Positions 11,346 through 63,710 are shown, numbered from the stretch's first letter. The stretch: DNA of 64,000 nt from a virus (IMGVR_UViG_3300025096_000008:1-64000); one strand, 5' to 3'. Program-made: numbers and translations. Notes: a model not told the origin generated them from the sequence alone.

Positions 11346-11427
11346 AAACAAAATAATACTTAACTTTGCTAGTTAGATGTGATATAATAATTCTACCCTA
11401 TGTCACATCTAACAATACGAGGTATAA

Positions 11428-12312
11428 ATGACAAAGCGAAATAACGAGGAGAGACTCGGATTACCTTCGACGGGCGCGAAGGGATCTACGTCTGATCCTC
11501 CTCCACCAGGGTCCGATAATGGCGGACTATCTTTTGTGGCGCCCACTGAACTAGTAGACCTGCCTTCTCAGGGAAGGTTCTACCCCGAAGGTCACCCCCT
11601 TCACAATCAAGAGTCAATTGAGATTCGAGAGATGACAGCCAAAGAAGAAGATATCCTTACTTCTAAATCTCTAATACAAAAAGGTGTCGTATTCGACAAG
11701 CTTTTACAAAACCTTATTGTCAACTCCATGATTGGACCACAGCAACTTCTAGTCGGCGATAAGAATGCTCTTCTGATTGCCGCCCGACGAAGCGGCTATG
11801 GTGAGATGTACGAAACATCCGTGGACTGTCCATCTTGTGGAACCAAACAAGATATATCTTTTGATCTTACAGGTGCGACTGTCAAGGGACCACCCTCTCT
11901 CGAAGCATGTTCCGAAGCTGTGGATGCCCCAATCATCCAGACTGATAGTGGCACTTTTTTAGCTAGGCTTCCAAAGTCAGATCTTGATGTGGAACTGAAA
12001 TTAATTACAGGTGCCGACGAAAGAAAGCTGTCGGCAACACTTGAGATGAGAAAAAAGAAAAAGCTTTCAGAGAATATACTCACTGAGCATCTGAGGCTTT
12101 GTGTTGTTTCGGTGGCAGGTACGGAAAATAGGCAAGAGATAGAGAAGTTTATCGGTGTTATGCCGGCTAAAGATTCTAGATTCATTAGAAAGGTTATGGC
12201 AGAAATCACTCCAAATATTGATTTGACGCAAGAGTTCGTTTGCGAGGAGTGCTATCACGAGCAGGACTTGGAGGTTCCTATTAATGCCACGTTTTTTTGG
12301 CCTGACCAGTGA
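11428..12312 (+). CDS. Tail assembly chaperone / gp26-like baseplate hub protein
   Basis: VDLPSQG, EMTAKEEDIL, two CxxC pairs, ends FFWP; lies between tube and tape measure. Confidence 0.8.
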   Translation: MTKRNNEERLGLPSTGAKGSTSDPPPPGSDNGGLSFVAPTELVDLPSQGRFYPEGHPLHNQESIEIREMTAKEEDILTSKSLIQKGVVFDKLLQNLIVNSMIGPQQLLVGDKNALLIAARRSGYGEMYETSVDCPSCGTKQDISFDLTGATVKGPPSLEACSEAVDAPIIQTDSGTFLARLPKSDLDVELKLITGADERKLSATLEMRKKKKLSENILTEHLRLCVVSVAGTENRQEIEKFIGVMPAKDSRFIRKVMAEITPNIDLTQEFVCEECYHEQDLEVPINATFFWPDQ

Positions 12313-12472
12313 TTACATGGAGATGGTATATGAACAGTTCTTTGTTCTAAAATACCACGGAGGATGGAGTCTTATTGAGGCTTATAATTTGCCGATACAG
12401 TTGAGAAACTGGTTTGTTGAGAGACTAGCAAAGCAAATAAAGGAAGAGTCAGATTCCATCAAGAAGAAATAA
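12293..12472 (+). CDS. gp51-like chaperone segment, likely reached by +1 frameshift from the upstream ORF
   Basis: +1 frame FFGLTSDY...YHGGWSLIEAYNLPIQLRNWF overlaps the upstream ORF at a T7 run. Confidence 0.65.
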   Translation, partial: FFGLTSDYMEMVYEQFFVLKYHGGWSLIEAYNLPIQLRNWFVERLAKQIKEESDSIKKK

Positions 12473-12494
12473 GGCATCCTAGGGTGCCTTTTTT
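12471..12494 (+). terminator. Rho-independent terminator
   Basis: aaggcatcc-tag-ggtgcctt followed by Ts. Confidence 0.8.
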
Positions 12495-12530
12495 CATGCT
12501 AAAAAACTACTTATTGTGGAGGTTTCCCTT

Positions 12531-12884
12531 ATGGAGAGCAAGAAAATTAATGAAAACGAAGAAATGGTGCCGACAGTTATTGACTTCACTAAGATGAGGG
12601 ACGACGACGGGCAAATAAACGAGTCTTGGATTCTCACATTCGGGGCGACAATGAGATGGCTGATGCCGTCCTTGTTCAGGGGGGGAGCCACGCCAATGAG
12701 TATTCGTGGTTCGAGGGGCGAGATTAGCAATTTTGCAAATGTCCTATCAAAGGAAAAGAAATATTTACAATCCTGGAAAAGTAATGGATTGAGCAGCCCA
12801 GCGACGTATCGAAACAAGAGCAAGCTTAATTCGGCTGTAAAGAAGTTCGAAAGAGTTACCGGACTTAAATGGCCATTCAAATAA
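12531..12884 (+). CDS. Hypothetical late protein
   Basis: SD ggagg before ATG 12531; preceded by CTACTTAT. Confidence 0.7.
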   Translation: MESKKINENEEMVPTVIDFTKMRDDDGQINESWILTFGATMRWLMPSLFRGGATPMSIRGSRGEISNFANVLSKEKKYLQSWKSNGLSSPATYRNKSKLNSAVKKFERVTGLKWPFK

Positions 12885-12916
12885 TAAATATCTAGAACAA
12901 GGACACCCAGAGATAG

Positions 12917-15784
12917 ATGACGACACAAGAAGACAAGACCCTGGACCATTTGGTTGAACAGAAGGAACGCCTTGCAAAAGTTGCTAAGGAACAAAACGAA
13001 GCTCTCGACGAGGAGCTAACGTTAAAAAAACAGCTTTTGTCCGTGGGGCAGTCACTTCTTGGCACTGCTAATGATAGGCTGGAAGCGGCATCTAATCGAA
13101 AGAAGCAAGTCCTCGAAGTACAGCAGGCTGAGCAAGAAGCCCGAGAAGCGGAAGTTGAGCATCTGGAAAAAGCCGCCGAAGCCGCAGCCCGCAATAATAA
13201 TCTTACTGAAGAAGAACTTAGAACACAACAAGCGAACCTTGCGGCTGCTCGGGAAGCATACGAGATATCCAAAAAGAAAGGAGTAACACTTAAAGAGCAG
13301 CTAACATCACTCGCAGCACAGAAAGGAGTGGTAGATTCTTCCACCAAAGCCTTCGACTCCATTGCTACAAGCATGGGGATTTCAAGATCCCATGCCGGAG
13401 ATATGGCTAAGAATATGGTATCTTCCTATATCACGGCTGTTAAGACAGAAGGAATTTTTTGGGGCACCGTCAAGTCAGTGGCAAGCTTGGCTAGTGCATT
13501 CTGGGATGTGTTCAGCCCAGTGAGCCTGATCTCCTCCGCAATGTCTGCTATATGGACTGCCAGTTGGGAGTTCCTAATAGAAAGCTCTCAGGCTCTTTCG
13601 AATTTTAGTGCTGCAGCCGGCGATGCCGGATCGATGGCAAAAGATGTCGGGGCAGCAATGAGCCTAGGCACTGGTGTTAATATAGAGCAGGCAGCTCAGG
13701 CAGCATCGGGATTAGCCGCTAGCTGGAGAGGCTTCTCGGGAGCATCTAGTGCCGCGAGAACCTCCATGATAAGAACTGCTGCCGAGCTTAATGTGCTTGG
13801 TATCAGTGCCGAATCAACAGGCGAAGCCATAGAGCTTCTCACAAGGACAATGGGTGTCTCTACTAAACAAGCAGAGAAGACGCTGAAGGGTATGGCATCA
13901 GCAGCTTCATCGCTTGGTACTACCCCCGCCAAGCTACAATCTGATCTTGCCTCTGTTCAGGGGAGCTTGTCTCTCTATGGCGATAGGATGATAGATGAGT
14001 TTTACGATCTTGCTGGGGCAGCAAAGGCTGCTGGATTGGAGATGTCAGACTTGACAGCTCTTGGAGAATCGTTTGATTCGTTTGATGATGCTTCATCCAA
14101 GACAGGAAACTTGAATGCTCTATTGGGCGGACCATTTCTTGACAGCATGGAGATGATGAGATTACAAGCAGAGGAAGGTCCGGATGCTGTTGCTTATGCT
14201 CTCAAGGATGCTTTTGCTGCAGCAGGTAAGTCTTACAAAGACATGAACTACATGGAAAAGAAATCCTATGCCGACTCGATAGGAATGAGTGCTGATAAGT
14301 TTGGTAAGCTAATGTCGATGTCGAAGAGCGAGGCTAAAGCAGAAGCCAAAAAAGCAAAGCAGGAGGCAGCTTCTCAAAAGAGATATAAGAAGATGCTTCG
14401 CTCCACGGTAAGTTTAGGAATGCAGATAAAGAACTTCTTCCAATCTGTATTCGCGAACAAGAAAGTGGTGGGAGCTATAAGAAGGCTCATGGGCATCCTC
14501 ATAGGTCCGAAATCCCAGAAAGGTCTGAAGGAAATAACGAAGGCACTTGGCGATAAAATGGCAGCAGCCATAGAAGTAGTTACAATTGTGGCAGAACGAC
14601 TCGTGAAGTGGTTCTCAAAGCTAACGGATGGCTGGGGCGATGTCGGCATGATGACAGATGAGAATGGCAATCTCATGAAGGATTGGGGAACAAAGGTGGA
14701 GGAAGTCATGGACTCCATGGAGGAGGCGATGGAGGGCTGGGGAACAAGGGTGGAGGAAGTCATGGACTCCATCGGACCCTCGCTGGATAGGTTCGGAAAG
14801 TGGCTGGAGGAGACACTCGAAAAAGTTGGAGAGGGCGAATCTTTTTGGGACCAAGTGTGGGAAGGGATGGGTTTTACTTTCGCCAACTTTTGGGATTCTA
14901 TTGGGCAATACATGGTCGGCGGCTATTTGGCCATCAAGGCCATCGGTGTGCTCTTTGCTTGGCTCGGAGATAAAGTTATGGCTACTTTTGCCAAGGGCTT
15001 TAGAAAGTCATCTGTCGGAATAGGAAAAGGATTCATCACTCTAGCTCGTGCAATTTCCAGATCCATAACCATTATAGGTAGGGCGTTTATGAGCCCAACA
15101 GGCATGTTTTTCACAGGCTCACTGGCGATAATTCTAGGTACACTGGGATATTCGCTGAAGCAACTGGCAGCAGCATTCCAAGGGTTCGGCGAGATGATGA
15201 CGGGCATCGGGAAAGCTTTCGATGCCATCGGAGGCTTTATAACACACCTCATTAAGATAACAACCGATGGCTTGTCAGTCAGAATGCTTAAATTTATGTA
15301 TGACTTTTCAAAAGCCCTCGATGTGATGGGCATGTCTATGAGGGCAATTCCGGGAGTCCAATCGAACTATATCGTCCAGCTCATAAAAGCCTTTCAGGCT
15401 AATGGTCCTGGTGCTGCTTCGGCAATGGATAAGTTTGCCGAAGCGGTAGAGAGGCTGGTTGCTGCTTTACAGAAGCTTTCAACCAGCAAGATATATGCCT
15501 TCGGGTGGAACATGACTCAAGCATTCGAAGCGACAGCAAAAGTAACACCACAGAGTGCCAAAGCGGCTGCTAAAGTTATCGACAAGGCAAAAGAGTATCA
15601 AAAAGAAGTGGTAAAAAACAAAGACAATGTTGATGCTCTTGCTGAGCTTCTGAAAGCCACAGGAGCAGCTCAGCCAGCAGGCGGACCTGGCGGCGAAACA
15701 GTTATTAGGCTTGAGCTCGGCGGCAAAGTTATGAGTGAATACATCTGGAACTCAGTCAATGGCGACATCAACCGCCGCCGATAG
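12917..15784 (+). CDS. Tail tape measure protein
   Basis: 955 aa, Ala-rich and helical, with hydrophobic C-terminal segments; follows the chaperone. Confidence 0.85.
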   Translation: MTTQEDKTLDHLVEQKERLAKVAKEQNEALDEELTLKKQLLSVGQSLLGTANDRLEAASNRKKQVLEVQQAEQEAREAEVEHLEKAAEAAARNNNLTEEELRTQQANLAAAREAYEISKKKGVTLKEQLTSLAAQKGVVDSSTKAFDSIATSMGISRSHAGDMAKNMVSSYITAVKTEGIFWGTVKSVASLASAFWDVFSPVSLISSAMSAIWTASWEFLIESSQALSNFSAAAGDAGSMAKDVGAAMSLGTGVNIEQAAQAASGLAASWRGFSGASSAARTSMIRTAAELNVLGISAESTGEAIELLTRTMGVSTKQAEKTLKGMASAASSLGTTPAKLQSDLASVQGSLSLYGDRMIDEFYDLAGAAKAAGLEMSDLTALGESFDSFDDASSKTGNLNALLGGPFLDSMEMMRLQAEEGPDAVAYALKDAFAAAGKSYKDMNYMEKKSYADSIGMSADKFGKLMSMSKSEAKAEAKKAKQEAASQKRYKKMLRSTVSLGMQIKNFFQSVFANKKVVGAIRRLMGILIGPKSQKGLKEITKALGDKMAAAIEVVTIVAERLVKWFSKLTDGWGDVGMMTDENGNLMKDWGTKVEEVMDSMEEAMEGWGTRVEEVMDSIGPSLDRFGKWLEETLEKVGEGESFWDQVWEGMGFTFANFWDSIGQYMVGGYLAIKAIGVLFAWLGDKVMATFAKGFRKSSVGIGKGFITLARAISRSITIIGRAFMSPTGMFFTGSLAIILGTLGYSLKQLAAAFQGFGEMMTGIGKAFDAIGGFITHLIKITTDGLSVRMLKFMYDFSKALDVMGMSMRAIPGVQSNYIVQLIKAFQANGPGAASAMDKFAEAVERLVAALQKLSTSKIYAFGWNMTQAFEATAKVTPQSAKAAAKVIDKAKEYQKEVVKNKDNVDALAELLKATGAAQPAGGPGGETVIRLELGGKVMSEYIWNSVNGDINRRR
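14684..14772 (+). repeat. 54-bp-period direct repeat in tape measure (WGT[KR]VEEVMDS x2)
   Basis: tggggaacaa(a/g)ggtggaggaagtcatggactccat at 14684 and 14738. Confidence 0.9.
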
Positions 15785-15838
15785 AGATCACGATAAAAAA
15801 GCTCCACCTTCCTATTTATAATAGAGGAGAAAATCACT

Positions 15839-16786: not shown

Positions 16787-16808
16787 ATAAAGAAAATGGA
16801 GTTGACAA

Positions 16809-23622: not shown

Positions 23623-23642
23623 GAAAAGTGATCTGATATAAT
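23614..23642 (+). promoter_or_regulatory. sigma70-type promoter for SSB
   Basis: TTGACA-17-TATAAT with an extended TG. Confidence 0.9.
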
Positions 23643-24443: not shown

Positions 24444-24476
24444 GGAGGCACAGGGTTAACGGGTGCCTCTTTTTTT
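24444..24476 (+). terminator. Rho-independent terminator after SSB
   Basis: gaggcac...gtgcctc followed by T7. Confidence 0.8.
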
Positions 24477-24498
24477 ACTTTATTTACGGAGTTGTGCT

Positions 24499-25623
24499 AT
24501 GGCGAGAAGTTTGAAACATAAAAAAGGTTCTTTGAACATCGATGAACTTAGGAAAAAGATCAATAAAAAGGCTGGCATGAATGTAGCACACGATCTTACG
24601 ACAGATAATCCAACTGAAGTCAAAGACTGGATTCCCACAGGCTCCACATGGCTAAATAGTGTCATTTGCCGAGGAAAGACTGCTGGTATCCCGGTAGGAA
24701 AGATATCAGAGATAGCAGGATTAGAAGCCTCCGGAAAGAGCTACATGGCAGCCCAGACAGCAGCCAATGCCCAGAAAATGGGAATCAATGTGGTATACTT
24801 CGACTCAGAATCATCCATCGATCCTACTTTTCTTAGCAAAAGCGGTCTGAATGTCGATGAAGTTCTGTATGTCCAGGCAAGCTCTGTTGAGTTTGTGCTG
24901 GAGACGATTGAGGAGCTCTTGAATTCGACGGAAGATAAGATGCTGTTTATTTGGGACAGTCTCGCCTTGACACCAGCGGTAAGTGATGTAGAGGGAACAT
25001 TTAACCCTAACGAATCGGTAGCTGTCAAGGCTCGTGTATTGGCTAAGGGAATGTCCAAACTAATAGTATCGCTAGCCAACTCACAGTCTACCCTTTTGGT
25101 ATTAAATCAGCTCAAGACAAATCTCCAAGTAGCGAACCCGAAGTACGCGACGGATAGTGAAAAATATACCACTCCTGGAGGCAAGTCGATGATGTATGCC
25201 TACAGTTTGAGAATTTGGCTGACTGGCAAGCGAGGCAAGAAGAGCATCATTGCCGACGACAAGGGTTTTGTCGTCGGCAATGAAGTCAAGGCTCGATTGG
25301 AAAAGTCTCGATTTGGAACAGCCGGCAGAATATGTAATTTCAAGATTATGTGGGGTAATGACATCGGGGTGAGGGATGACGAGAGTTTATTTGAGGCTAT
25401 ACAGTCTTCGGACCAGTTGATAAACTCGGGTCCATGGTGGACTCTCAAATATGGTGATGGATCTGAACAGAAATTCCAAGCCGCCAAGTGGGGCGAATTC
25501 ATGCTGGATTCAAAATTCCGAGATAGAGTCTTGCGGCTTGTGGACGAAGAGGTCGTCCTGAAGTTTGATAATAGGGATGTAGATGCCCAACACTTTTACG
25601 ATGAAGCAGAAGCAGAGGTATAG
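24499..25623 (+). CDS. recA: RecA/UvsX recombinase
   Basis: IPTGS, Walker A GLEASGKS, FIWDS, LNQL, TPGG and KSRF. Confidence 0.93.
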   Translation: MARSLKHKKGSLNIDELRKKINKKAGMNVAHDLTTDNPTEVKDWIPTGSTWLNSVICRGKTAGIPVGKISEIAGLEASGKSYMAAQTAANAQKMGINVVYFDSESSIDPTFLSKSGLNVDEVLYVQASSVEFVLETIEELLNSTEDKMLFIWDSLALTPAVSDVEGTFNPNESVAVKARVLAKGMSKLIVSLANSQSTLLVLNQLKTNLQVANPKYATDSEKYTTPGGKSMMYAYSLRIWLTGKRGKKSIIADDKGFVVGNEVKARLEKSRFGTAGRICNFKIMWGNDIGVRDDESLFEAIQSSDQLINSGPWWTLKYGDGSEQKFQAAKWGEFMLDSKFRDRVLRLVDEEVVLKFDNRDVDAQHFYDEAEAEV

Positions 25624-26423: not shown

Positions 26424-27396
26424 GAAAAGAATAATGATAGTTGATGGTCACAATGCTTTTATTAGGCACTATATTGTGAACCCAACTATCTCCTCCAACG
26501 GTCAGCCCATCGGAGGTTTAGTAGGCTTCCTCCAGGGACTACAGAAGCTAGCAAGAACGATAAAACCAGATCTGATATCTGTTGTGTGGGACGGAGAAAA
26601 CGGCAGCCGCCGCCGTCGAAGCATCGTCAAGGGGTACAAGGAAGGCAGGAAGCCAGTTCGGCTCAATCGATTTATAAGAAACCTGCCTGAGAATGAAGAG
26701 TCAAAAAATCTCATCTGGCAGCAGGTCAGAGTGCTTGAATACCTAAATGAGACCCCCGTGATTCAGTTTATGTTCCCAGAAACAGAGGCAGATGACACCG
26801 TAGCATATGTGAGTCAACTCCCTCAGCTTAGTGACTGGCACAAAGTGATAGTATCCAGCGACAAGGATTTCTTCCAACTATGTGGTGATTCGACAATCTT
26901 ATATCGTCCCATACAGGACGAGGTTGTGAACAAGAATTCTATTTTGGAAAAATTCAGCATCCACCCCGATAACTTTGCCCTCGCTAGGGCAATCTCTGGG
27001 GATAAATCAGACAACCTTCCTGGTGTGCCGAGAGTTGGAATTCCGACTGTGGCAAAACGACTCCCATTCCTGTCGGAGGACAAGGAATATCTGGTAGCTG
27101 ATATAGAGAAATATTGTGAAGAGAGAGAGGAAGAAAAGGTTAAGTTTTATAGAGATGTTTTGGAGAATATTGATATCGTAAAAATCAATTACAAGATGAT
27201 GCAACTCTATTCACCATCCCTCTCAACTCAGACAACTAGAAAAATAAGGGAAACATTTGACGAGTACATTCCCCTGTTTAATAAGACGGGAATGGTAAAG
27301 CTTCTGTTTGAAGACGGCTGCCCTCAAATCAACCTCGACAATCTCTTTGCCCTATTTCAGAGAACTGTTTATGAACTAAAGAAACAAACCTCTTGA
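26410..27396 (+). CDS. 5'-3' exonuclease / T4 RNase H (FEN family)
   Basis: IVDGHN, VWDG, YKEGR, EADD, SSDKDFFQL and GDKSDNLPGV. Confidence 0.93.
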   Translation: MGENKKRIMIVDGHNAFIRHYIVNPTISSNGQPIGGLVGFLQGLQKLARTIKPDLISVVWDGENGSRRRRSIVKGYKEGRKPVRLNRFIRNLPENEESKNLIWQQVRVLEYLNETPVIQFMFPETEADDTVAYVSQLPQLSDWHKVIVSSDKDFFQLCGDSTILYRPIQDEVVNKNSILEKFSIHPDNFALARAISGDKSDNLPGVPRVGIPTVAKRLPFLSEDKEYLVADIEKYCEEREEEKVKFYRDVLENIDIVKINYKMMQLYSPSLSTQTTRKIRETFDEYIPLFNKTGMVKLLFEDGCPQINLDNLFALFQRTVYELKKQTS

Positions 27397-27421
27397 CTTT
27401 CGAAAGAAAAAAAGGTATACT
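27393..27421 (+). promoter_or_regulatory. sigma70-type promoter for helicase/RNR
   Basis: TTGACT-17-TATACT. Confidence 0.8.
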
Positions 27422-27442
27422 ATATACCTGGGAGAAAAATAC

Positions 27443-33032: not shown

Positions 33033-33061
33033 GACTACTTATTAGGACTAAGGGAGAGAAA

Positions 33062-33709: not shown

Positions 33710-33741
33710 AATCAACAACTTACAAATACTCAACAAATCTC

Positions 33742-33770
33742 TTGACAAGAGATTTGTGATATGATATACT
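33742..33770 (+). promoter_or_regulatory. sigma70-type promoter for dnaE, -35 inside a 25-bp palindrome
   Basis: TTGACA-17-TATACT with TG. Confidence 0.88.
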
Positions 33771-38472: not shown

Positions 38473-38952
38473 ATGGATAAGAATACAAAAAAGGTTATGT
38501 TTAGCAGTAAAGATATGAGTTGGGAAACTCCTCAAAAGTTGTTCGATAAGCTAGACGAGGAGTTCAGCTTTGATTTGGATCCCTGTGCCTCCAACGACAA
38601 TGCTAAATGTAAGAACTTCTTTACGGAGGACGACGACGGACTAGCACAGTCTTGGGGACCGAACAAGTCAATATTTGTCAACCCACCATATGGCAAGGCG
38701 ATAAAGAGCTGGGTAAAAAAGGCTTACGACGAGAGTCGAAAAGAAAAAACTACTGTCGTAATGCTAATACCTTCTCGAACTGATACATCGTATTGGCACG
38801 AGTATTGTATGAAAGCCGCCGAGATCTACTTCATAAAAGGGCGAATCAAATTTAGCGATAGCAGTATGTCAGCCCCATTTCCGTCTGCAGTTGTTGTTTT
38901 TCGGGACCACTGGAAGCAACAAAACCCGCTGATGGGAGCGATCACCAGGTAA
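38473..38952 (+). CDS. Phage N6-adenine DNA methyltransferase (small Dam family)
   Basis: WETPQ, FDLDPCAS, DGLAQSW, NPPY, LIPSRTDT and GRIKF. Confidence 0.92.
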   Translation: MDKNTKKVMFSSKDMSWETPQKLFDKLDEEFSFDLDPCASNDNAKCKNFFTEDDDGLAQSWGPNKSIFVNPPYGKAIKSWVKKAYDESRKEKTTVVMLIPSRTDTSYWHEYCMKAAEIYFIKGRIKFSDSSMSAPFPSAVVVFRDHWKQQNPLMGAITR

Positions 38953-39823: not shown

Positions 39824-40122
39824 TCATCGGGTTCGAGGACGAAGACACCACTTATGCTAAGCTACTTACCAAGCTTAAGCATGAGGGCATCACAAAGAGA
39901 CAGTTTTTCAGAGGAGTTGTATCTTCTTTCCTGGAAGATGACCCGAAGTTTGCCGACTACATAATAGAGTTCAAAAAAAAGAAGCATCTTTTTGTAAAAA
40001 GTAAGCAGAAAATACTTGACAAAGAGAAACAAATATCCGATAATACAAAGAGAAAGTTTAGACTATCAGAAGATGAGATAGAAGGCTTGTTCGACATGTT
40101 TGAAGAGGAAATGGACATATGA
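39820..40122 (+). CDS. Putative ribbon-helix-helix DNA-binding protein with acidic tail
   Basis: Short strand plus two helices (GITKRQFFRGVV); coupled by GTGA/ATGA overlaps. Confidence 0.45.
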   Translation: MIIGFEDEDTTYAKLLTKLKHEGITKRQFFRGVVSSFLEDDPKFADYIIEFKKKKHLFVKSKQKILDKEKQISDNTKRKFRLSEDEIEGLFDMFEEEMDI

Positions 40123-40355
40123 AGGACTGCGCTAAGAAATGCTACACATCGGGCGACATGTGTCTGAAAGAGGATTGTAGGCTGTGGATAGAGCACAAAG
40201 AGGATAACAACTGTGTAGCGATATCCATAGAGAAGAACGGAGAAATGACTCTCCACCAGATTTCTGAAAGGCTGGGAGTTAGTTATGTGAGAGTGAAGCA
40301 AATACAAGATAAGGCACTAAACAAGCTTAATAAAAGATTGCTTGTTATAGAGTGA
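40119..40355 (+). CDS. Stand-alone sigma70 region-4 HTH protein with Cys-rich N-terminus
   Basis: MTLHQISERLGVSYVRVKQIQDKALNKL matches sigma region 4.2 (TLEEVG..F.VTRERIRQIE.KALRKL). Confidence 0.85.
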   Translation: MKDCAKKCYTSGDMCLKEDCRLWIEHKEDNNCVAISIEKNGEMTLHQISERLGVSYVRVKQIQDKALNKLNKRLLVIE

Positions 40356-40453
40356 TAAAAAGGGATTTTTGCCTTTCTGAACACTATTTATAGATGATTT
40401 AAAGTTTCTTTATCGCCACAAAGGCGAATTAATATTCATAGGGAGAGAGAGTT

Positions 40454-41031: not shown

Positions 41032-41070
41032 AAAAAACCACCTGCATCCCTTTGAGCAGGTGGTTTTTTT
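41032..41070 (+). terminator. Rho-independent terminator (A-flanked, possibly bidirectional)
   Basis: aaaaaaccacctgc...gcaggtggttttttt. Confidence 0.88.
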
Positions 41071-41072
41071 GC

Positions 41073-41101
41073 TTGACAAGCTTGAAAAGAAGTTTTATAA
41101 T
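41073..41101 (+). promoter_or_regulatory. sigma70-type promoter
   Basis: TTGACA-17-TATAAT, followed by CTATTTAT at 41111. Confidence 0.85.
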
Positions 41102-41142
41102 CTTTCTGAACTATTTATTTTGAATATGGGAAGTTATTTATC

Positions 41143-44242: not shown

Positions 44243-44278
44243 CATACTATTTATGGTATCTAGCCAAGAGGATTTTCC

Positions 44279-46078: not shown

Positions 46079-46107
46079 TTGACAGATTAGAGGCAATATG
46101 TTATGAT
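46079..46107 (+). promoter_or_regulatory. sigma70-type promoter for the tRNA
   Basis: TTGACA-17-TATGAT. Confidence 0.85.
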
Positions 46108-46118
46108 CTAATCTGCTT

Positions 46119-46193
46119 GGACTTGTAGCTCAGCGGTAGAGCGACCCGCTCATAACGGGTTGGTCGTAGGTTCAAATCCTACCGGGTCCACCA
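46119..46193 (+). tRNA. tRNA with CAU anticodon, most likely tRNA-Ile2 (lysidine)
   Basis: Cloverleaf: GGACTTG/CGGGTCC acceptor stem, ACCCG-CTCATAA-CGGGT anticodon arm, GTAGG-TTCAAAT-CCTAC T arm, encoded CCA; no initiator features. Confidence 0.95.
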
Positions 46194-46228
46194 CTTGACA
46201 GCCACTCTGTGGTGTTTATATTATATCT

Positions 46229-46289
46229 GTGTCGCCTTCTAGGGGCACACTAACTAAGTCATAAGCTTGCTTATAAAGGAGAACAGATG
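46229..46289 (+). promoter_or_regulatory. ROSE-like RNA thermometer in the hsp20 leader
   Basis: An upstream hairpin plus cUUGCUU-aua-AAGGAG, which pairs the SD with a bulged G. Confidence 0.6.
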
Positions 46290-46727
46290 ACTAAACTAAC
46301 TAGAAACCATTACTTTCCGTCCATCATGGGGCAATCGGTGCTGGACTCGATCTTCGAACAGTTGATCGTTCGCTCGCCAGATTGGTCCGGCGAGGTCACC
46401 AAGAAATCCACAGAAGGATATCCTCTTACGGACATCTACAAGGACGAGGAAAACAATCAGGTAATCGAGGTAGCTCTCGCTGGCTTCTCCAGGGAAGACT
46501 TGAAGGTGGAAGTGAGGGATAACTACATTACGATTTCTTGTGAATCCATCTCAAAAGGAGATACAACCTCACGACGAATTGCTAGGAGGTCTTTCTCGAA
46601 GTCGTTCGTTGATTATGAGAATCAGCTTGATTTGAATAAGTCCGACGCATCCTTCGAGAATGGATTACTGAGGGTTACTATCCCCCCTACCGAAGAGGCG
46701 AAACCAACTGTTATTTCGATTGGGTAA
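46287..46727 (+). CDS. Small heat-shock protein Hsp20 (IbpA-like)
   Basis: YPLTDI, EVALAGFSREDL, IARRSF and ASFENGLLRV. Confidence 0.95.
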   Translation: MTKLTRNHYFPSIMGQSVLDSIFEQLIVRSPDWSGEVTKKSTEGYPLTDIYKDEENNQVIEVALAGFSREDLKVEVRDNYITISCESISKGDTTSRRIARRSFSKSFVDYENQLDLNKSDASFENGLLRVTIPPTEEAKPTVISIG

Positions 46728-46743
46728 AATTTGGTATGTATAG

Positions 46744-46775
46744 AAAAACACACTTCGGTGTGTTTTTTCTTTTTT
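46744..46775 (+). terminator. Rho-independent terminator
   Basis: aaaaacacac-ttcg-gtgtgttttt followed by a T run. Confidence 0.88.
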
Positions 46776-49018: not shown

Positions 49019-49045
49019 CTCTCGAAGGAGGCACTACTTACTGGT

Positions 49046-50167: not shown

Positions 50168-50524
50168 ATGTCTAACAAACAAAGCCGAATTTCACCGGCA
50201 CAACAACTGGCACAGGCGATGAGAGAAAACGGCAATGTGCATGTTATACCCACCAAGGCGGCAAAAATCGTAAAAGAAATGGAAAAGCAAATTGAGAATT
50301 TATTTGCCGAACTGGTCAAATCTAAATCGGAGGTGTCCAAGTTAAGTGATCTCGTGGAATACCAGAGAGATCGCATTCGAGCCTTGGAAGAGGCTAACCA
50401 GTCGAAAAATAAGACGGAAACACCTAAAGTGAGTAAAAACAGTGACTTGGCGAAACCAAAGAAATCGAGGGCAAAAAAGCCCAAGAAAACCAGCCGAGTA
50501 AAAAAATCCTCACAAAAGACTTGA
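50168..50524 (+). CDS. Coiled-coil protein with Lys-rich tail
   Basis: SD aaggag; composition. Confidence 0.65.
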   Translation: MSNKQSRISPAQQLAQAMRENGNVHVIPTKAAKIVKEMEKQIENLFAELVKSKSEVSKLSDLVEYQRDRIRALEEANQSKNKTETPKVSKNSDLAKPKKSRAKKPKKTSRVKKSSQKT

Positions 50525-50549
50525 CATGATCTCTGCTTTGTGTAATAAT
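50521..50549 (+). promoter_or_regulatory. sigma70-type promoter
   Basis: TTGACA-17-AATAAT. Confidence 0.65.
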
Positions 50550-50585
50550 ATGTAAATCAGCATTACTCACAAAGGAGCAACAAGA

Positions 50586-50852
50586 ATGGTTTCCGTTAAG
50601 ATTTATCAGAAAAGCAAAGATGGGCTCAGTGTACCAACCGTGACGAAAGAATTTACAATGGATTCTTTCGAAAAGAAGACTATAATGGATATTATCTCCC
50701 TTTACGATCCAGATGAGTACATGGTTGTCGCGACCTACGGTAAGATTTCGCCCCGAGGCAAAAACTGGGTTCGTCTTTCTTCTGCTTTCGATGAGATACA
50801 TATAAAATACGGCAATACTGATATGACAGATCATCTTATCGGAAAGGCATAA
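50586..50852 (+). CDS. Hypothetical protein
   Basis: SD aaggag. Confidence 0.65.
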   Translation: MVSVKIYQKSKDGLSVPTVTKEFTMDSFEKKTIMDIISLYDPDEYMVVATYGKISPRGKNWVRLSSAFDEIHIKYGNTDMTDHLIGKA

Positions 50853-51521: not shown

Positions 51522-51580
51522 CCGCCAGTGTTTTTAGGTTGGCTTACTTATAAGATTAAAAGAGAAGAGGAAAAGCTATT

Positions 51581-52722: not shown

Positions 52723-52751
52723 TTGACAGAGTTGATCTCCTGTGATATGGT
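52723..52751 (+). promoter_or_regulatory. sigma70-type promoter
   Basis: TTGACA-17-TATGGT with TG. Confidence 0.7.
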
Positions 52752-52783
52752 ATTATATTCACAGGCAAAGAAGGAGCACTAAT

Positions 52784-54642: not shown

Positions 54643-54723
54643 TACTACTTACTTATAGGGGCAAAATTTACTATAGGAGAAATATAAAATGTTATCTTTA
54701 TTAAATTCAGGAAAGTCACAGTT

Positions 54724-54993: not shown

Positions 54994-55005
54994 AAGGAAA
55001 GTATT

Positions 55006-56241: not shown

Positions 56242-56281
56242 TTCAGCAATGGAGGGAATTATAAGATGGCAGGAATAGAAA

Positions 56282-57408: not shown

Positions 57409-57489
57409 AAAGGTTATACTTTTTTTGGGACGAGATCTGGCTCTTGTAAGTGCCCGATATGTCTGTGTAAAAAAACTGTTATTATGTTC

Positions 57490-57518
57490 TTGACAGAGTG
57501 ATCTCTCTGTGTTACGAT
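57490..57518 (+). promoter_or_regulatory. sigma70-type promoter
   Basis: TTGACA-17-TACGAT with TG. Confidence 0.8.
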
Positions 57519-57552
57519 GGTCCTACAACATCAAGCGAAAGGGATCACCACT

Positions 57553-57837
57553 ATGTCACTCAAACTTACAACACTCGGATCAAACCAAACTGAGATCAAA
57601 ACAAGCAAACACACTGTCCTGTTTTCATATGAAACCCCAGTAGTGGCTCATACTCACTATGGCAACGGGCATAAGCCTGTGGTGTTCATCACTAACGGAG
57701 CAAATGAGGAAGGCAAGAAGATCCGGACTCGAACCACCTACGGACACATCAATTCTTATGTGAAAGATCTGCCTTCCAACTGGGAAAGGTTCGATGTCGA
57801 TCAGGAAGAACTAGAAAACATTTTGGCGAACGGATAA
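57553..57837 (+). CDS. Hypothetical early protein
   Basis: VLFSYETPVVA...TRTTYGHIN, a small-protein pattern common in phages. Confidence 0.7.
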   Translation: MSLKLTTLGSNQTEIKTSKHTVLFSYETPVVAHTHYGNGHKPVVFITNGANEEGKKIRTRTTYGHINSYVKDLPSNWERFDVDQEELENILANG

Positions 57838-57843
57838 AGCACA

Positions 57844-58071: not shown

Positions 58072-58382
58072 TGAAACAGGACTTCAAAAAAAAGCTAAAA
58101 GCACACGACTGGTATTATAGCTATAGTGATGATCACAATGTGTGGGAGCGAGGAAGGCGCCAGCTTCAGAACATTGTGGCACTGTACGACAGCACCAACT
58201 GCCCTTTTGATCTTGTGGAGCTTCGAAGGTGGGCTACGGGCATGGTCATAGGTCCATTTGCTGAAGAAGGACCAGACGAGTGGTACCTTCAGCCTCGAAA
58301 GTATAAGTGTACTGCCTCTGTCAAGAAAGCAGAGCTACTTACCACCGAGAGGAACCAGGAGATCGAAGTATGGTTCGAATAA
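58068..58382 (+). CDS. Hypothetical protein
   Basis: HDWYYSYSDDHNVWERG; ATGA overlap. Confidence 0.65.
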   Translation: MMKQDFKKKLKAHDWYYSYSDDHNVWERGRRQLQNIVALYDSTNCPFDLVELRRWATGMVIGPFAEEGPDEWYLQPRKYKCTASVKKAELLTTERNQEIEVWFE

Positions 58383-59014: not shown

Positions 59015-59020
59015 GATAAT

Positions 59021-59296
59021 ATGAAGCCGATAAAGAAAAGTAAACTAAAGAAATATAAGGGAAGAATCTTAGACCTCCACAAGGTTAGCCATGCTGATGT
59101 TCCGGAGGTGCTATCTGCCTTCCTGTACAAGAGCATAGACAAAAAAAGAATGCCTGTGGAAGTCATTACGGGCAACAGCAGTGCTATGAGGGATGTTGTG
59201 AATAGTGTGGTAGACTACATGGGCTTTATGTCTATTAGACAGCCAGCTACGGACGAGGCGGGCAAGCTTGTCATTGACATAGAAGAGCTGGACTGA
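59021..59296 (+). CDS. Stand-alone Smr-like domain protein
   Basis: LDLHKV...VEVITGNS...GKLVI. Confidence 0.7.
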   Translation: MKPIKKSKLKKYKGRILDLHKVSHADVPEVLSAFLYKSIDKKRMPVEVITGNSSAMRDVVNSVVDYMGFMSIRQPATDEAGKLVIDIEELD

Positions 59297-59419
59297 TGGT
59301 AGTAGAAACATTCGGAATCGTTTTCTTTGTAGGCTATCTGATTCTAGCAGGCTGTGTTGCCTACTATTTGTGGTAGATATAAATCGGGGTTTTGCTGCTT
59401 GAAAGACTATTTATATATT

Positions 59420-59743
59420 ATGAGAATAATAATTGAAGGTAACGGCTCTTTATCAAAGCAGCAGTTACAGAAAATGTCTCCCGAGGAAGTGAAGGCTTAC
59501 TTCTCGTCTATAGAATCAGAGGAAGAGCCCAGGGTAGGTCCACCGCTTAAAGGCTCTCCCGACTTCAAGAACTCCGGCAAAACCGTCCCCAGCAATGAAG
59601 ATGATCGTATCCGCCAAGCCGTCCAGTATGTACTCCAGGATCCATCCGTCATGGACATGATAAAGAAGCACCTTTCTGGTGTGGCTGGAGCATCCCCCTT
59701 GGAACCAACGAAGCCAGGCAGGAAGAAGCCTGCTAGCGAGTAA
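59420..59743 (+). CDS. Hypothetical late protein
   Basis: ATG 5 nt after CTATTTAT. Confidence 0.6.
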   Translation: MRIIIEGNGSLSKQQLQKMSPEEVKAYFSSIESEEEPRVGPPLKGSPDFKNSGKTVPSNEDDRIRQAVQYVLQDPSVMDMIKKHLSGVAGASPLEPTKPGRKKPASE

Positions 59744-59748
59744 GAGCT

Positions 59749-60948
59749 ATGAAGCTATTGTTTGAGAACTGGCGAAGCCACCTAGAAGAAGGAATAAGCG
59801 ATATCGTCTATCACGGCACCAGCCTAGGTAGACTATCGGATATCGCCAAAGGCAACCGACTTATGACATCTGGTGTCTTCGGTGCTGATGCTGAAGAGAT
59901 CATCGGCAAGGGAAAGTTCTACTTTCTCTCTACGGCACGGTCCCCATCAGCCTTCAAGCATGGATATCCTTTGGTCAAGGACGGCAAAACTCGTATCACT
60001 CTAGACGGCAAGAAGATCGGACAGAAGTATTCGGGTGGACCAATAGATTACTGGCGGGATCGAACTAAAGGCGGCAAGTCAGAGATGGAAGATAGGATCA
60101 TAACAGACGATCCTTGGATAGAGAATGCTGCTGATTACATTACAGAGATAGTCGTCTACCTTCCGATCCTCAGAGGAAAGGCAACTGATTCAGACAGCAT
60201 CCTAGGATCAATTGCATCGGACAAGCCGACAAAATATGAATACATTCCCAACCGAGATATTGGATTTGCCGATATCAAAGCTCTAAAAGAGGTAAGCGAT
60301 TTTGCTCAATCCCACGGGATCCCTCTAAAGATAATACCGACAGAAGAAAAAGAAAGTGAGTTCTATATGAACAACCAGCCCTCAGCAGTATCCCACGACG
60401 AATTCGATAAAATGAGAAAAGAGTTAGACATAGACCCAGAGGAAAAAACACATCGTGGGAAGGAGCGAGATGCCTTCCACATAAAGCTAAGGAATGCGTC
60501 ATCCTATTCTCTTCTTCCTCCACTAATGGAACTGACCAAGATGCTGGATGCCGGCAACTTTAACTCATCCTCATCCGAGAAATGGTTTCCAACGAAAGAG
60601 GACATGCTGGAGGTCAAAACAGATTTGTACGAGTGGTCCAAGAAGCCAGACTTTGAGGAGTATCCACTACCAGAGTATGATGAGCCCGAAAAGCGAGAGC
60701 TACGAAGGAAGTTCCTGGAAGGGCAAGTGATAGTTACCAAGGAAGACATCGATGATGTTGAGGAAAGGCTCACTCGGTTTAAAAACGAGGCAGCCAGTGT
60801 GTTCGGTACCGACTTTCTAAGTGCTAGGACAGATCCTCGCCGAAGACCCTTCATTCAATTCTTTACGAAATACATGAGAAGCAAAAAGCTTGAGAATGTC
60901 ACTGAACTAGTCAAGCATCTAGAGCAAGAGCTCAGAAAAACTATTTAG
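59749..60948 (+). CDS. Putative internal head protein with ADP-ribosyltransferase-like domain
   Basis: Begins MKLLFENWRSHLEE; VYHGTS, FLSTARS and EMED. Confidence 0.55.
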   Translation: MKLLFENWRSHLEEGISDIVYHGTSLGRLSDIAKGNRLMTSGVFGADAEEIIGKGKFYFLSTARSPSAFKHGYPLVKDGKTRITLDGKKIGQKYSGGPIDYWRDRTKGGKSEMEDRIITDDPWIENAADYITEIVVYLPILRGKATDSDSILGSIASDKPTKYEYIPNRDIGFADIKALKEVSDFAQSHGIPLKIIPTEEKESEFYMNNQPSAVSHDEFDKMRKELDIDPEEKTHRGKERDAFHIKLRNASSYSLLPPLMELTKMLDAGNFNSSSSEKWFPTKEDMLEVKTDLYEWSKKPDFEEYPLPEYDEPEKRELRRKFLEGQVIVTKEDIDDVEERLTRFKNEAASVFGTDFLSARTDPRRRPFIQFFTKYMRSKKLENVTELVKHLEQELRKTI

Positions 60949-60958
60949 GGGGAGCAAG

Positions 60959-61150
60959 ATGAAGGTGGACCTAAAAACACTAGCAACCATCCTAGGTTTG
61001 ATAGCCCTAGTCGGCGGCTCTGTCGCTCACTTTGGAGGCTTCTATTACACCACCCAGCTAAGACTGGAAAGCCTAGAAGAGAAAACATCTAAGCTAGAAA
61101 AGAAGATCCAGAAGCAGGATCGGAAAAAGAACAAAGGGAAGAACAAATGA
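60959..61150 (+). CDS. Small N-terminal-TM coiled-coil protein
   Basis: TM helix then RLESLEEKTSKLEKK; CTATTTAG upstream. Confidence 0.6.
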   Translation: MKVDLKTLATILGLIALVGGSVAHFGGFYYTTQLRLESLEEKTSKLEKKIQKQDRKKNKGKNK

Positions 61151-61740
61151 AAAACTTACTTACACTGATCGTATCACTATCATTCCTCTCCGGATGTATG
61201 CTAGAGAGGCAATACGATGTAGTATCAGAGCAATCTATGGTAGCAAGCGGAGGCGACTACTATGACTTCCTTTCTAACTCCAGCGATACTTTTGTTGATA
61301 TTGTGGGCAGCAGTCTCCACGGTGTGGTGGGGCAGGTAGAGGATATAGAGACAGACCTCAGCTCTGTCTCTGGCTTCGACGAAGGAGACCATACTTATGT
61401 CGAGGTATTGATGACTGGTGTCCACGGATCCGCCATGGTCGCCTTTACTTTCTATGGAGGCATCACCCACCCAGATGTGGCACCAGGACATGTCCATCGA
61501 TTCGTGCCTTCTTCTGCCGAGAGATATAAAGATGATTTGCATGTAGAGGCTATTGTTTGTTCGGGAGCATTCCCTCACGAGTGGTCGTATGACGACATAG
61601 TGAACATAGTTGGTATCGAAGTAGAGCAACTCGTGGTGCCCAACGACGAACCACCAGCAGTTCGAATCAATTTTACCACAACGACTGAAGGCGACATTGT
61701 TACAGGTCATCTCGATGTTGTCGCCACCTCACAAGAATAG
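61147..61740 (+). CDS. Lipoprotein
   Basis: MKNLLTLIVSLSFLSG-C lipobox. Confidence 0.75.
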   Translation: MKNLLTLIVSLSFLSGCMLERQYDVVSEQSMVASGGDYYDFLSNSSDTFVDIVGSSLHGVVGQVEDIETDLSSVSGFDEGDHTYVEVLMTGVHGSAMVAFTFYGGITHPDVAPGHVHRFVPSSAERYKDDLHVEAIVCSGAFPHEWSYDDIVNIVGIEVEQLVVPNDEPPAVRINFTTTTEGDIVTGHLDVVATSQE

Positions 61741-61755
61741 AAAGGGGTCGTTCCT

Positions 61756-62652
61756 ATGTCTATCGAAGAATACAGAAATAGCAATAGAATAGAGCAACTT
61801 TACCACAAGGGGCAGAAAAACATCTGGGATGGTAGAGAATATCTCCAGGCATGTATCGAAAAGAACAACGGAATAAGCCTTACCCCAGAGAAAAAGAATG
61901 CCCTTGGAAACATTTTTAGCACCATCTTGTGGGGCGAACTGGCAGCCTGGAAGATATCTTCCATCCTGGCAGCCCGGCTCGAAGACGAGCCAGCCAGGAT
62001 GGCAGCGACATCACAAGCACATGACGAAGCCAGACACTTTTATGTGATGAGAGACTACCTCCGTTTCCTAGGAATAGAGACAGCCGATGTCCAAGGAATG
62101 AAGAGTCACTCCCAAGACTTTCTCCAGTCGATAATGGAAGCAGACACGACACCCAAAATGATACTAGGTATGCAAATGATGGTTGAGCCGATGGCTCTTA
62201 CTCTGTTCAAGGTAGTGAGAGAGAGGAACATCGAGCCTGTGCTATCGGACTTGCTTCTGATGTATGAAAAGGACGAGGCAAGACATGTGGCACTCGGAAC
62301 ATTATACCTTCCCAAGATGATGTCTGAAATGGGACCAATAGCCAAGGCAGATCTGCTCGTATGGCAATTCTTTAGGTATATGAAGCAGTTCGAGATGCTA
62401 AAGGAGCTAAAAGACGACTTCAGAGCTCTTGACACCCCTCCCAGAGAAGTCTTCCTTCTCGCCCGTAAGAAGCAAGCCAAGACTATGGAGCTCCTCTCAG
62501 AGGAGATGGGAGAGCGCTACCCGCTGATGGATACGATGCTGAAATTCATCGATTTCCGTAACGAGATAGACTTTCCAGAAGAAGAGTCGAAATACCTAGA
62601 TAGACTTCGAGCAGCGGCTCGGAAGACATACCTCAAACAACCATCCAAATAA
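61756..62652 (+). CDS. Ferritin-like di-iron protein (AurF-like)
   Basis: WGE...DEARH...VE...DEARH. Confidence 0.8.
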   Translation: MSIEEYRNSNRIEQLYHKGQKNIWDGREYLQACIEKNNGISLTPEKKNALGNIFSTILWGELAAWKISSILAARLEDEPARMAATSQAHDEARHFYVMRDYLRFLGIETADVQGMKSHSQDFLQSIMEADTTPKMILGMQMMVEPMALTLFKVVRERNIEPVLSDLLLMYEKDEARHVALGTLYLPKMMSEMGPIAKADLLVWQFFRYMKQFEMLKELKDDFRALDTPPREVFLLARKKQAKTMELLSEEMGERYPLMDTMLKFIDFRNEIDFPEEESKYLDRLRAAARKTYLKQPSK

Positions 62653-62666
62653 AACGAAAATACTGC

Positions 62667-62695
62667 TTGACATAGTGAAAATGATCTGCTATAAT
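62667..62695 (+). promoter_or_regulatory. sigma70-type promoter
   Basis: TTGACA-17-TATAAT with TG. Confidence 0.9.
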
Positions 62696-62750
62696 GGCTT
62701 ATGAGACTTGGTTAGCTAATTGAGTACCACTCAAAGAAAGGGCAAAGAAG

Positions 62751-63602
62751 ATGGGATACAATACTACGGGAGAGAGTCACACTAATGGTATTAGTGGAGA
62801 AAAGCTGGTATTAAAGTTGATTCGCGAAAACCGAGATCTTCAACTTGATCTGGATCCAGGCAGCACGTCAAAGACAAAAATATGTGAACTTGGAGGCACC
62901 AAGCAAACTGCCGATCTGGGATATGGTGAATCTCGAATTACCGTCAAGTCTAAGAAGGACAAAAAAAGCGGCACTACAGACTGGCTAAATACTAGCAGGG
63001 TGGGCGATCACCTCCCGAACACCATCGAGCTCTTAGCCTTGCAGGAAACAATCAAAAGCCTCAAAGGCAGCTTTGATTCTAGAACAAAAAGAGATTCACC
63101 CGAAGGAAAAGAAGCATGTGCCTCCGCTAAGAAAATGATAGAAGAAGATACCGATTCAGTCTTAGAATCTTTCCCCGAGTCATCACTCCGAGATTTTATC
63201 AAGCAGGTATACGAAAAACAAATCGAACAGCTTCACGTTATATACAACCTGGCTTATGACTCTAAGGTTTTGCTTTTCCATGGTAGTAGCCACCCAATCG
63301 GAAGGTACATATCCGATGGCGGCTGCTTTTTTCTAAAGAATACAAAGCGAAACGGAGACATATCGAATTCTCGAAAGATAATGTATAAAAAAGATAATCT
63401 TTCAGAAGAACAATATACGGGGTGGCGATTACGCATGGTACTAAATAACGGGACAGGAGCATTGCTAGCAGGAAAGCACTGGTCATCAAATCCAAGTTCC
63501 GTACTCACTTTAAAGATTCAGGAAGAGGGCTTCTCTAACATGGTAGCCCAATTGAAAGAAAGAAATTGTCTTAAGGAATATTCCCATTGTGAGGAGTATT
63601 GA
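62751..63602 (+). CDS. Putative restriction-endonuclease-like PD-(D/E)xK nuclease
   Basis: GISGEK...LGGTKQTADL...ITVKSK. Confidence 0.5.
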   Translation: MGYNTTGESHTNGISGEKLVLKLIRENRDLQLDLDPGSTSKTKICELGGTKQTADLGYGESRITVKSKKDKKSGTTDWLNTSRVGDHLPNTIELLALQETIKSLKGSFDSRTKRDSPEGKEACASAKKMIEEDTDSVLESFPESSLRDFIKQVYEKQIEQLHVIYNLAYDSKVLLFHGSSHPIGRYISDGGCFFLKNTKRNGDISNSRKIMYKKDNLSEEQYTGWRLRMVLNNGTGALLAGKHWSSNPSSVLTLKIQEEGFSNMVAQLKERNCLKEYSHCEEY

Positions 63603-63710
63603 CTTAAGTTGTCATTGTGAGGAGACTCTCTTCATGGCGACAATATGTGTGAGCATTGAGCTCATCACTTATAACCGTAGGCATTGAGTCCTACAAAGAA
63701 GGAAAATAAC

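Follow-up and report, generated by a model that had tools for sequence, protein, structure and literature searches.

Do the promoters of a phage carry inverted repeats as a rule, and do such repeats act as a switch? The question is raised by a stretch of 64,000 nucleotides (hereafter the window), which corresponds to bases 1-64000 of the 87,182-bp IMG/VR viral contig IMGVR_UViG_3300025096_000008 (completeness ∼48% according to CheckV). An earlier inspection without database searches, the sequence-only reading, had claimed that the sigma70-type promoters of the window systematically carry inverted repeats over the -10 or -35 box, and had proposed a structure-based switch that silences or insulates early promoters. 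The arm pairs that it listed were all checked and all exist in the DNA where it had placed them. The promoters are real as well, since at least 11 of 12 positions of TTGACA-N16-18-TATAAT are matched at 15 sites on the + (coding) strand, six of them perfect, and at none on the - strand. A general structural promoter switch is not supported: inverted repeats over promoters are not a general property of this genome, two sites being clearly non-random and a few marginal, with the rest at chance level. On balance, the sequences lead us to lean towards reading the above-chance repeats as cassettes of a promoter and a stem-loop acting on read-through RNA, similar to the promoter-early stem-loops (PeSLs) of phages RB49 and phi1 (Arbiol et al., 2010; PMC2839356). 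Two, perhaps four, of the listed repeats would then be functional, and the remainder due to chance.

The promoters are placed upstream of gene starts, with an A-rich stretch before the -35 box and frequently a TG or TRTG extended -10. For a test set of 20 promoters in the contig (15 of them in the window), we scored the best ungapped inverted repeat (loop ≤30 nt) in a span that begins 15 nt 5' of the -35 box and ends 35 nt 3' of the -10 box, and used 300 sets of dinucleotide shuffles as null. Scores of at least 7 were reached by 8 of the 20 promoters (2.5 expected) and scores of at least 9 by 3 (0.22 expected), and none of the 300 shuffle sets equalled either count. For the window promoters alone, the corresponding numbers are 7/15 (1.9 expected, P=0.0013) and 3/15 (P=0.0006). 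In terms of RNA folding energy, the only outliers are 11360 (z -6.2), 33742 (z -3.5) and promoter 66334 (z -2.1), which lies outside the window, and the mean z over all 20 promoters is -0.72 (P=0.08). A stable stem-loop is found at 11360, 33742, 41073 and marginally 46079, most other promoters being at chance level. The word "systematically" was thus too strong: among the 15 window promoters, only the repeats 11372-11413 and 33733-33757 stand out by their folding energy.

The tail tube gene (10791-11345) and the following baseplate-hub-like gene (11428-12312) flank the strongest case among the listed sites, a promoter-like site (11360-11388, + strand; TTAACT-17-TATAAT, with TGTG before the -10) surrounded by a composite RNA hairpin (11363-11423, + strand). 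The inner stem (11372-11386/11399-11413) consists of 15 bp with one G.U and a 12-nt loop, and the outer stem (11363-11368/11418-11423) pairs with the Shine-Dalgarno (SD) sequence GAGG (11419-11422). On the + strand the hairpin folds with -22.8 kcal/mol (z -5.4, 0/200 shuffles), versus -15.7 kcal/mol (z -1.9) on the - strand. Homologues of the downstream gene with 57-88% protein identity keep the intergenic pattern aataatNN-TTAAAT-16/17-TAtaaT, and in five lineages (L082, L085-89, L090/L126, L091/92, L093-95) an inverted repeat with unrelated arms encloses the -10 (examples of arms are CTTAAGAT/ATCTTAAG, AAATTCCTA/TAGGAATTT, TTAAATTCTTCT/AGAAGAGTTTAA and GTTGTATCATG/CATGGTACAAC). In each lineage, the + strand RNA folds into a composite hairpin (19-22 bp) that starts in the -35 region and stops shortly before the SD or enters it. 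The folds of the homologues have P ≤0.03 in 9/12 sequences, with the + strand favoured over the - strand by 0.7-10 kcal/mol. Single mismatches in these hairpins are G.T on the + strand, and in a single-lineage alignment 23 pairs are maintained via G.U despite eight one-sided changes. Relatives with at most 54% identity have neither the intergenic region nor the promoter nor the hairpin, and promoter and hairpin therefore seem to have been gained or lost as one unit. What appears to be kept at this locus is the structure and not the sequence, as the sequence-only reading had proposed for the whole set; that idea holds here in five lineages and is incomplete for the set, in which the GATC motif AGAGATCAC recurs in a subclass of promoters. 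The hairpin would provide a clean natural example of a selected structure with complete sequence turnover, and we favour for it a role in lowering the expression of the hub-like gene, or uncoupling it, relative to that of the abundant tube gene.

How could such an element work? As correctly pointed out in the sequence-only reading, the left arms lie upstream of +1, which confines the folds to DNA or to read-through RNA. With its 5' arm upstream of the start of the embedded promoter, the hairpin would form only in transcripts that read through from upstream genes, where it would attenuate transcription, mark a processing or stabilising site, or mask a ribosome-binding site. Transcripts from the embedded promoter would be devoid of the 5' arm and would escape. 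Which of attenuation, cleavage and masking applies we infer site by site.

Masking is predicted at two sites of the window, for which we compared the accessibility of the SD-to-AUG region in the promoter's own transcript, in read-through RNA, and in read-through RNA with its upstream part shuffled (null). An imperfect hairpin (50533-50577, + strand) has its 5' arm (50533-50542) in the spacer of promoter 50521-50549, and its 3' arm (50568-50577) holds the SD AAGGAG of gene 50586-50852, in a register better than the imperfect pairing 50536-46/50562-74 listed originally. Its SD accessibility is 0.63 in the own transcript and 0.41 in read-through RNA (null 0.63 ± 0.07, P ∼0.02). Its overall energy is unexceptional (z -0.65), and relatives provide no informative variation, the small downstream gene being found in close relatives only. 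A long-range read-through pairing (57491-57558, + strand) joins the spacer motif GTGATCTCT (57498-57506) to the SD region AGGGATCAC (57540-57548), and the TGACA of the -35 box (57491-95) to a TGTCA over the start codon (57554-58). It folds with -20.5 kcal/mol (z -1.4), and accessibility goes from 0.61 in the own transcript to 0.18 in read-through RNA (null 0.48 ± 0.13, P ∼0.03); the short repeat 57493-57510 within it is by itself at chance level, and is weakened in relative L146. Significant occlusion of the SD in read-through RNA (P ≤0.03) is found in the contig at promoters 50521, 57490 and 76589 only, and no masking of the ribosome-binding site was detected at 11360, 33742, 46079 or 52723.

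A survey of relatives (∼3 Mb, 313 non-redundant promoter windows) extends these observations to the family. Inverted-repeat scores of at least 9 are found in 15 windows versus 4.4 expected, of at least 10 in 9 versus 1.3, and of at least 12 in 5 versus 0.1. The promoter hexamers are not the source of this excess, because the expectation is the same whether they are shuffled or left in place. Among intergenic regions, promoter-bearing ones reach a score of at least 7 in 31/68 cases versus 67/279 for promoter-less ones (P=0.0008), and a score of at least 9 in 13/68 versus 23/279 (P=0.014), both classes being above their own shuffles. A non-chance repeat is present in approximately one quarter of the promoter-bearing intergenic regions, 2.5 times the promoter-less rate. 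Scores of at least 8 occur in 20/68 of these regions, 7 corresponding to terminators just 5' of the -35 box and 13 to repeats that overlap the promoter. Their placements cover the positional subclasses, five in number, that PeSLs also show. As for the 20 strongest repeats of the 313 windows, 18 straddle the -10 or transcription start site, 5 have an SD in their 3' arm and 5 are followed by a U-run (9 in all), versus 8 of 215 chance-level repeats (P=5.5e-7). Since an SD in the 3' arm and U-runs are RNA signals, we read the strong repeats as RNA elements: most likely, these hairpins terminate read-through RNA or mask a ribosome site, the 5' arm being missing from the RNA of the embedded promoter. 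In five relatives (L008:1654, L017:1067, L028:4985, L157:9539 and L150:5452), hairpins of 12-14 bp have the -10 in their loop or 5' arm and the SD of the next gene as their 3' arm; these are better experimental material than the sites of the window.

The second clearly non-random site of the window is probably an element of a different kind, a putative site for a dimeric DNA-binding protein. A perfect 25-bp palindrome with 12-bp arms and a 1-nt centre (33733-33757) lies over the -35 of the DnaE promoter (TTGACA 33742-47, TATACT 33765-70), centred on an A of TTGACA (z of the site fold -3.75). Both the palindrome and its half-site occur once in the 87-kb contig. A change that gives rise to AGATCT disrupts one pair in L002 and L006, and in L003 a symmetric change converts C:G to T:A. 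Across the window clade, L231 and L233, one position reads T:A, C.A and C:G, and another C:G, A:T and A.C, so that covariation across sub-clades affects two pair positions and proceeds via A.C and not + strand G.U as intermediates. These intermediates, together with the 1-nt centre, favour a protein site in duplex DNA over an RNA hairpin. The palindrome is missing in the L005/L230 sub-clade, and L007 has a different palindrome instead. The symmetric changes could alternatively result from templated quasi-palindrome correction. A LexA-type box was also considered, and shows no resemblance.

Besides inverted repeats, a subclass of the promoters is marked by GATC, found 17 times in promoter windows versus 6 expected and at fixed offsets. 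The GATC-containing AGAGATCAC has 8 exact copies versus 0.67 expected, 6 of them at promoters, and at six promoter sites motifs of this type are found in direct as well as inverted orientation. In the forms TGATCTG(y)TATAAT and AGAGATCAC/GTGATCTCT, the motif is found in the window at 23629, 49128, 50527, 52733, 57498 and 62682, and in the rest of the contig at 66349, 67725, 72361-72413 and 76598-76652. Four copies are present at promoter 72352 and another four at 76589, both orientations being represented, from -30 to the start codon. Since the phage encodes a Dam-family N6-adenine methyltransferase (38473-38952; PF05869, E=5e-36) and GATC lies in promoter spacers, methylation could tune these promoters. 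A 78-aa protein (40119-40355) has sigma70 region 4 as its only Pfam match (PF04545, E=7e-9), and is possibly a binder of the -35 box or a mimic of the sigma-beta-flap contact.

The other listed sites are more modest. A repeat with 9-bp arms and a 15-nt loop (46083-46115, + strand; arms 46083-91/46107-15) spans the spacer, -10 and +1 of promoter 46079-46107, 3 nt upstream of a tRNA-Met gene (46119-46193). Its score is reached in ∼1% of shuffles, with an RNA z of only -1.75. In close relatives its arms are identical and 3-4 loop bases have changed, which suggests constraint, without covariation; in a more distant relative, the same tRNA is preceded by a terminator and not by a promoter. The AT-rich 7-bp palindrome with a 3-nt centre over the -10 of promoter 27393-27421 (27413-27429; arms 27413-19/27423-29) has a score of 7, found in ∼12% of shuffles (RNA z -2.4). 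L003 has a disrupting change in it with no compensation, and L004 and L007 have lost it; it is probably fortuitous. Around the -10 of promoter 52723-52751, a 7-bp repeat (52739-52765; arms 52739-45/52759-65; z -0.62) has an uncompensated change in its left arm in L144/L145 (84% local identity), where another 14-bp palindrome follows the -35. The repeat 30718-52 is lost in L004 and L007. The repeat 63609-63643 had been described as a promoter hairpin with its loop on a putative GAGACT -10. It is a genuine intergenic RNA hairpin (63608-63644, + strand; 11 Watson-Crick pairs and 4 G.U), located directly after the stop of gene 62751-63602 and folding with -16.9 kcal/mol on the + strand (z -3.1) versus -8.1 (z -0.9) on the - strand, and no credible promoter is associated with it, GAGACT matching the -10 consensus at 3/6 positions; the region is replaced in close relatives. 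At 41073-41101, a consensus promoter abuts a terminator with a 14-bp stem and a T-run (41032-41069; whole unit 41032-41101, + strand), and the palindrome listed there (41071-41081) has 5 bp only. Together with 23611-30, 57493-510 and the three sites already called weaker (30706, 37258 and 44592), it belongs to a group of 5-6-bp repeats at chance level.

Several results weigh against reading the above-chance repeats as cassettes acting on read-through RNA. When 35 promoter-less intergenic windows from this genome serve as reference, a control proposed in the sequence-only reading itself, the promoters show no significant excess, either for scores of at least 7 (8/20 versus 8/35, P=0.22) or of at least 9 (3/20 versus 1/35, P=0.13); the excess stands against shuffles (7/15 versus 1.9 in the window) and not against this control. 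Without 11360 and 33742, the mean folding z drops to -0.26 (18 promoters, P=0.25), and over the family the folds show no significant strand asymmetry (23/40). None of the promoter-overlapping hairpins in the window has a U-run, which makes a terminator function doubtful there. We rejected the idea that promoter sequence occludes the SD in general (mean accessibility 0.500 versus 0.498 in the null, 183 promoters), and at 11363-11423 itself the effect on SD accessibility, read-through versus upstream-shuffled, is not significant. RNAalifold found no common structure in all 13 tube/hub homologues, because the hairpins are not positionally homologous; the evidence at this locus is the recurrence of a hairpin, and not classic column covariation. 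Repeats of ∼100 bp as in PeSLs are not seen either, the most alike promoters (23614, 62667, 66334 and 67710) having only ∼33 nt in common, from -35 to -10. Finally, the read-through transcripts, start sites and cleavage are predicted, and we infer that read-through exists.

Part of this pattern would be expected if AT-rich near-consensus promoters generated short palindromes by themselves, 11363-11423 and 33733-33757 being the only functional sites and unlinked to each other. Indeed TATA is self-complementary, TTGaCAA is palindromic, and the CA of the -35 complements the TG of an extended -10. The low mean z without the two outliers, the comparison with promoter-less regions of this genome, the breakage of 27413 and 52739 and the loss of 30718 in close relatives, and the fact that SD occlusion is not general all fit such a coincidence. 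It accounts poorly, however, for the equal expectations from fixed-hexamer and free shuffles, for the excess in promoter-bearing intergenic regions of the family (P=0.0008), for the link between strong repeats and RNA signals, and for the hairpin that recurs at the tube/hub promoter in five lineages. Such a predominance of coincidence, with no common mechanism, we regard as unlikely. For individual sites it calls for caution: short AT-rich palindromes over -10 or -35 boxes should not be read as regulatory, as most of those found here are due to chance. The repeats could instead be operators bound by dimeric phage or host proteins, a view that concerns mainly 33733-33757 and the GATC-motif arrays rather than the whole set. 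The perfect palindrome on a -35 box, unique in the contig and with two pair positions covarying via A.C and not G.U, speaks for it, as do the direct and inverted AGAGATCAC-type motifs at six promoter sites and the presence of the sigma70-region-4-only protein and the Dam-family methyltransferase. Yet no single regulator can explain the set, because the arms differ at every promoter, and the half-site of 33733-33757 does not recur. The repeat at 11372, with its 15-bp arms, 12-nt gap, G.U pairs and complete turnover between lineages, speaks against an operator, and templated correction could yield the symmetric changes at 33733. Operators thus seem a rather improbable explanation overall.

The switch at the DNA level put forward in the sequence-only reading, in which a cruciform or single-stranded hairpin occludes or pre-melts the -10 or -35 and leaves early promoters silenced or dependent on supercoiling, fares worst, and we consider it highly improbable. 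The geometry of 33733-33757 (1-nt centre, 12-bp arms) and 27413-27429 (3-nt centre) would allow extrusion, and the -10 hexamer lies in the loop in many cases. Long central spacers disfavour cruciform extrusion, however, and those at 11372, 46083, 50533 and 52739 measure 12-25 nt. The G.T pairs favour the + strand and, like the much weaker - strand folds at 11355-11432 and 63600-63650, are at odds with a two-strand cruciform. In relatives, strong repeats go with an SD or U-runs (9/20 versus 8/215), that is, with RNA signals, and there is no systematic signal over promoters. A more specific combination can also be imagined, in which promoter and hairpin at the tube/hub locus would form a conserved filter for transcript origin, gained and lost whole with arms turning over wholesale, late read-through RNA being cut or damped and embedded-promoter RNA spared, while separately 33733-33757 would be the operator of the 78-aa sigma-region-4 protein; taken together, we find this quite unlikely. 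The reading that we retain is that of promoter/stem-loop cassettes acting on read-through RNA.

Gene cassettes differ between close relatives, some of their junctions falling at promoters (46195, 42606, 62696 and 66378). For ∼10 junction ends, 4 at promoters is more than expected over the whole sequence (P=7e-5) and not if junctions are confined to intergenic DNA (P=0.42), and we thus rejected this enrichment as proof of PeSL-type shuffling. Promoter 46195 and an Hsp20-like gene form a cassette (46196-46738) that the two closest relatives (L002, L006, L142, L143) do not have, their tRNA-Met leading straight to the terminator 46744-46767; on the left, the junction coincides exactly with the first nucleotide of the -35 box. 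Another segment of ∼3.5 kb with three genes, from 62697 through the window's end at 64000 to contig position 66160, is replaced in G001 by ∼2.2 kb of unrelated DNA. Homology to G001 ends at the -10 of promoter 62667, and returns for 218 bp only, ending 16 nt past the -10 of 66334.

The source of this DNA is an uncultured marine myovirus, distantly T4-like judging from its gp23-type major capsid protein, DnaE and GroEL-type chaperonin. A tail sheath, DnaB and a ribonucleotide reductase are also encoded, and all credible genes of the contig lie on the + strand. No near DNA match was found in cultured phages (megablast of 5 kb against a phage collection), the best cultured matches of the capsid being Microcystis phage Mel-JY01 (37%), Rhodothermus RM378 and Flavobacterium phages. 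Relatives number in the hundreds in IMG/VR and metagenomes; most are marine, and their contigs reach ∼190 kb. The tRNA-Met was the sole match in an Rfam search. Terminators are few, clear ones with a U-run being located at 833-865, 41032-41069 and 46744-46767. Two further inverted repeats were observed: a perfect one (25247-25283, 16-bp arms, 5-nt loop) falls within coding DNA, in gene 24463-25623, equals any terminator of the contig in strength and has no + strand T-run, and another (17-bp arms, 21-nt loop) is intergenic, outside the window at contig 67554-67608, upstream of promoter 67710. The motif ACTAyTTAT is repeated 10-40 nt 5' of many gene starts, above all of structural genes (1950-1960, 4850-4860, 7860-7870, 10765-10775, 12500-12510, 33040-33050, 40400-40410, 41115-41125, 44250-44260, 49030-49040, 51550-51560 and 54650-54660), and is likely the late-promoter motif of the lineage; at 41073-41125 it comes after the sigma70 promoter. 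Over the whole contig GGCC is nearly missing (10 versus ∼263 expected), and ACGT (30 versus 100) and TGCA (102 versus 279) are depleted, which suggests avoidance of restriction sites.

How do these elements compare with known systems? The early promoters of phage N4, cited as a precedent in the sequence-only reading, carry stems of 5-7 bp with 3-nt loops and conserved sequence, and involve a giant virion RNA polymerase, host gyrase and single-stranded DNA-binding protein. The inverted repeat at the promoter and a structure that could form in DNA are shared features. The geometry is not: here the arms measure 7-15 bp and the loops 12-25 nt, their sequences are unrelated, and the promoters follow the sigma70 consensus, so that this precedent does not fit. 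A phage RNA polymerase (PF00940) was not found in the 87-kb contig, which represents ∼48% of the genome, and a control search gave no match either. The RNase III processing hairpins of phage T7 are intercistronic and located in polycistronic phage mRNAs. The hairpins here resemble them in lying between cistrons, several beside promoters, with ∼20 bp and internal loops (19-22 bp at the tube/hub locus), but they match no such sequence or family in Rfam, and their cleavage is hypothetical.

Closer parallels exist among T4-like phages. In T4 genes e, soc, 49 and I-TevI, a promoter lies in the 5' strand of a hairpin that masks the ribosome-binding site (PMC3014915), and in this scheme long read-through transcripts are masked and promoter-proximal ones translated. 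The same arrangement, with a promoter in or near the 5' strand and an SD or AUG in the 3' strand, is seen at 50533-50577 and 57491-57558 as well as in the five relatives with 12-14-bp hairpins, and this precedent, also named in the sequence-only reading, fits 50533-50577 and several relatives. However, the embedded promoter is here of sigma70 type and not the T4 late TATAAATA, the masking is weaker and predicted from sequence, and compared with the T4 late-promoter hairpins the timing logic may be reversed.

The PeSLs, to which the sequence-only reading did not refer, are the closest precedent, and the hairpin/promoter arrangement is in this sense already published for another branch of gp23-type phages. 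In the T4-type phages RB49 and phi1, a PeSL consists of a strong sigma70-like promoter, an upstream A/T-rich stretch and a stem-loop, which sits between, over, upstream or downstream of the -35 and -10 boxes and in which G-T pairs are marked; one such stem-loop equalled rrnB T1 as a terminator in a lacZ assay, and the authors proposed that the stem-loops terminate or attenuate upstream transcription and that the cassettes are recombination seams (Arbiol et al., 2010; PMC2839356). PeSLs were later extended to PST/T4 and nt-1/KVP40 (Comeau et al., 2014; PMC4122927). The phage studied here differs in that only a minority of its promoters has a non-chance stem-loop, its stems are not of the short G-run/C-run type and are devoid of U-runs, and its best case belongs to a structural gene block rather than a hyperplastic region. 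Junctions are also no longer in excess at promoters if taken to be confined to intergenic DNA, and the lineage is far from the Tevenvirinae, as indicated by its best cultured capsid match. Several features are shared with PeSLs. The myovirus is of gp23 type, its near-consensus sigma70 promoters lie in intergenic DNA and are preceded by an A/T-rich stretch, and the stem-loops, which include G-T pairs, precede the -35 and -10 boxes, cover them, separate them or follow immediately; some cassette junctions fall at promoters, and the proposed action is on transcription coming from upstream. If this reading is true, both PeSLs and the T4 discrimination between read-through and promoter-proximal transcripts would extend to abundant, uncultured marine myoviruses of ∼190 kb that are far from the T-even phages.

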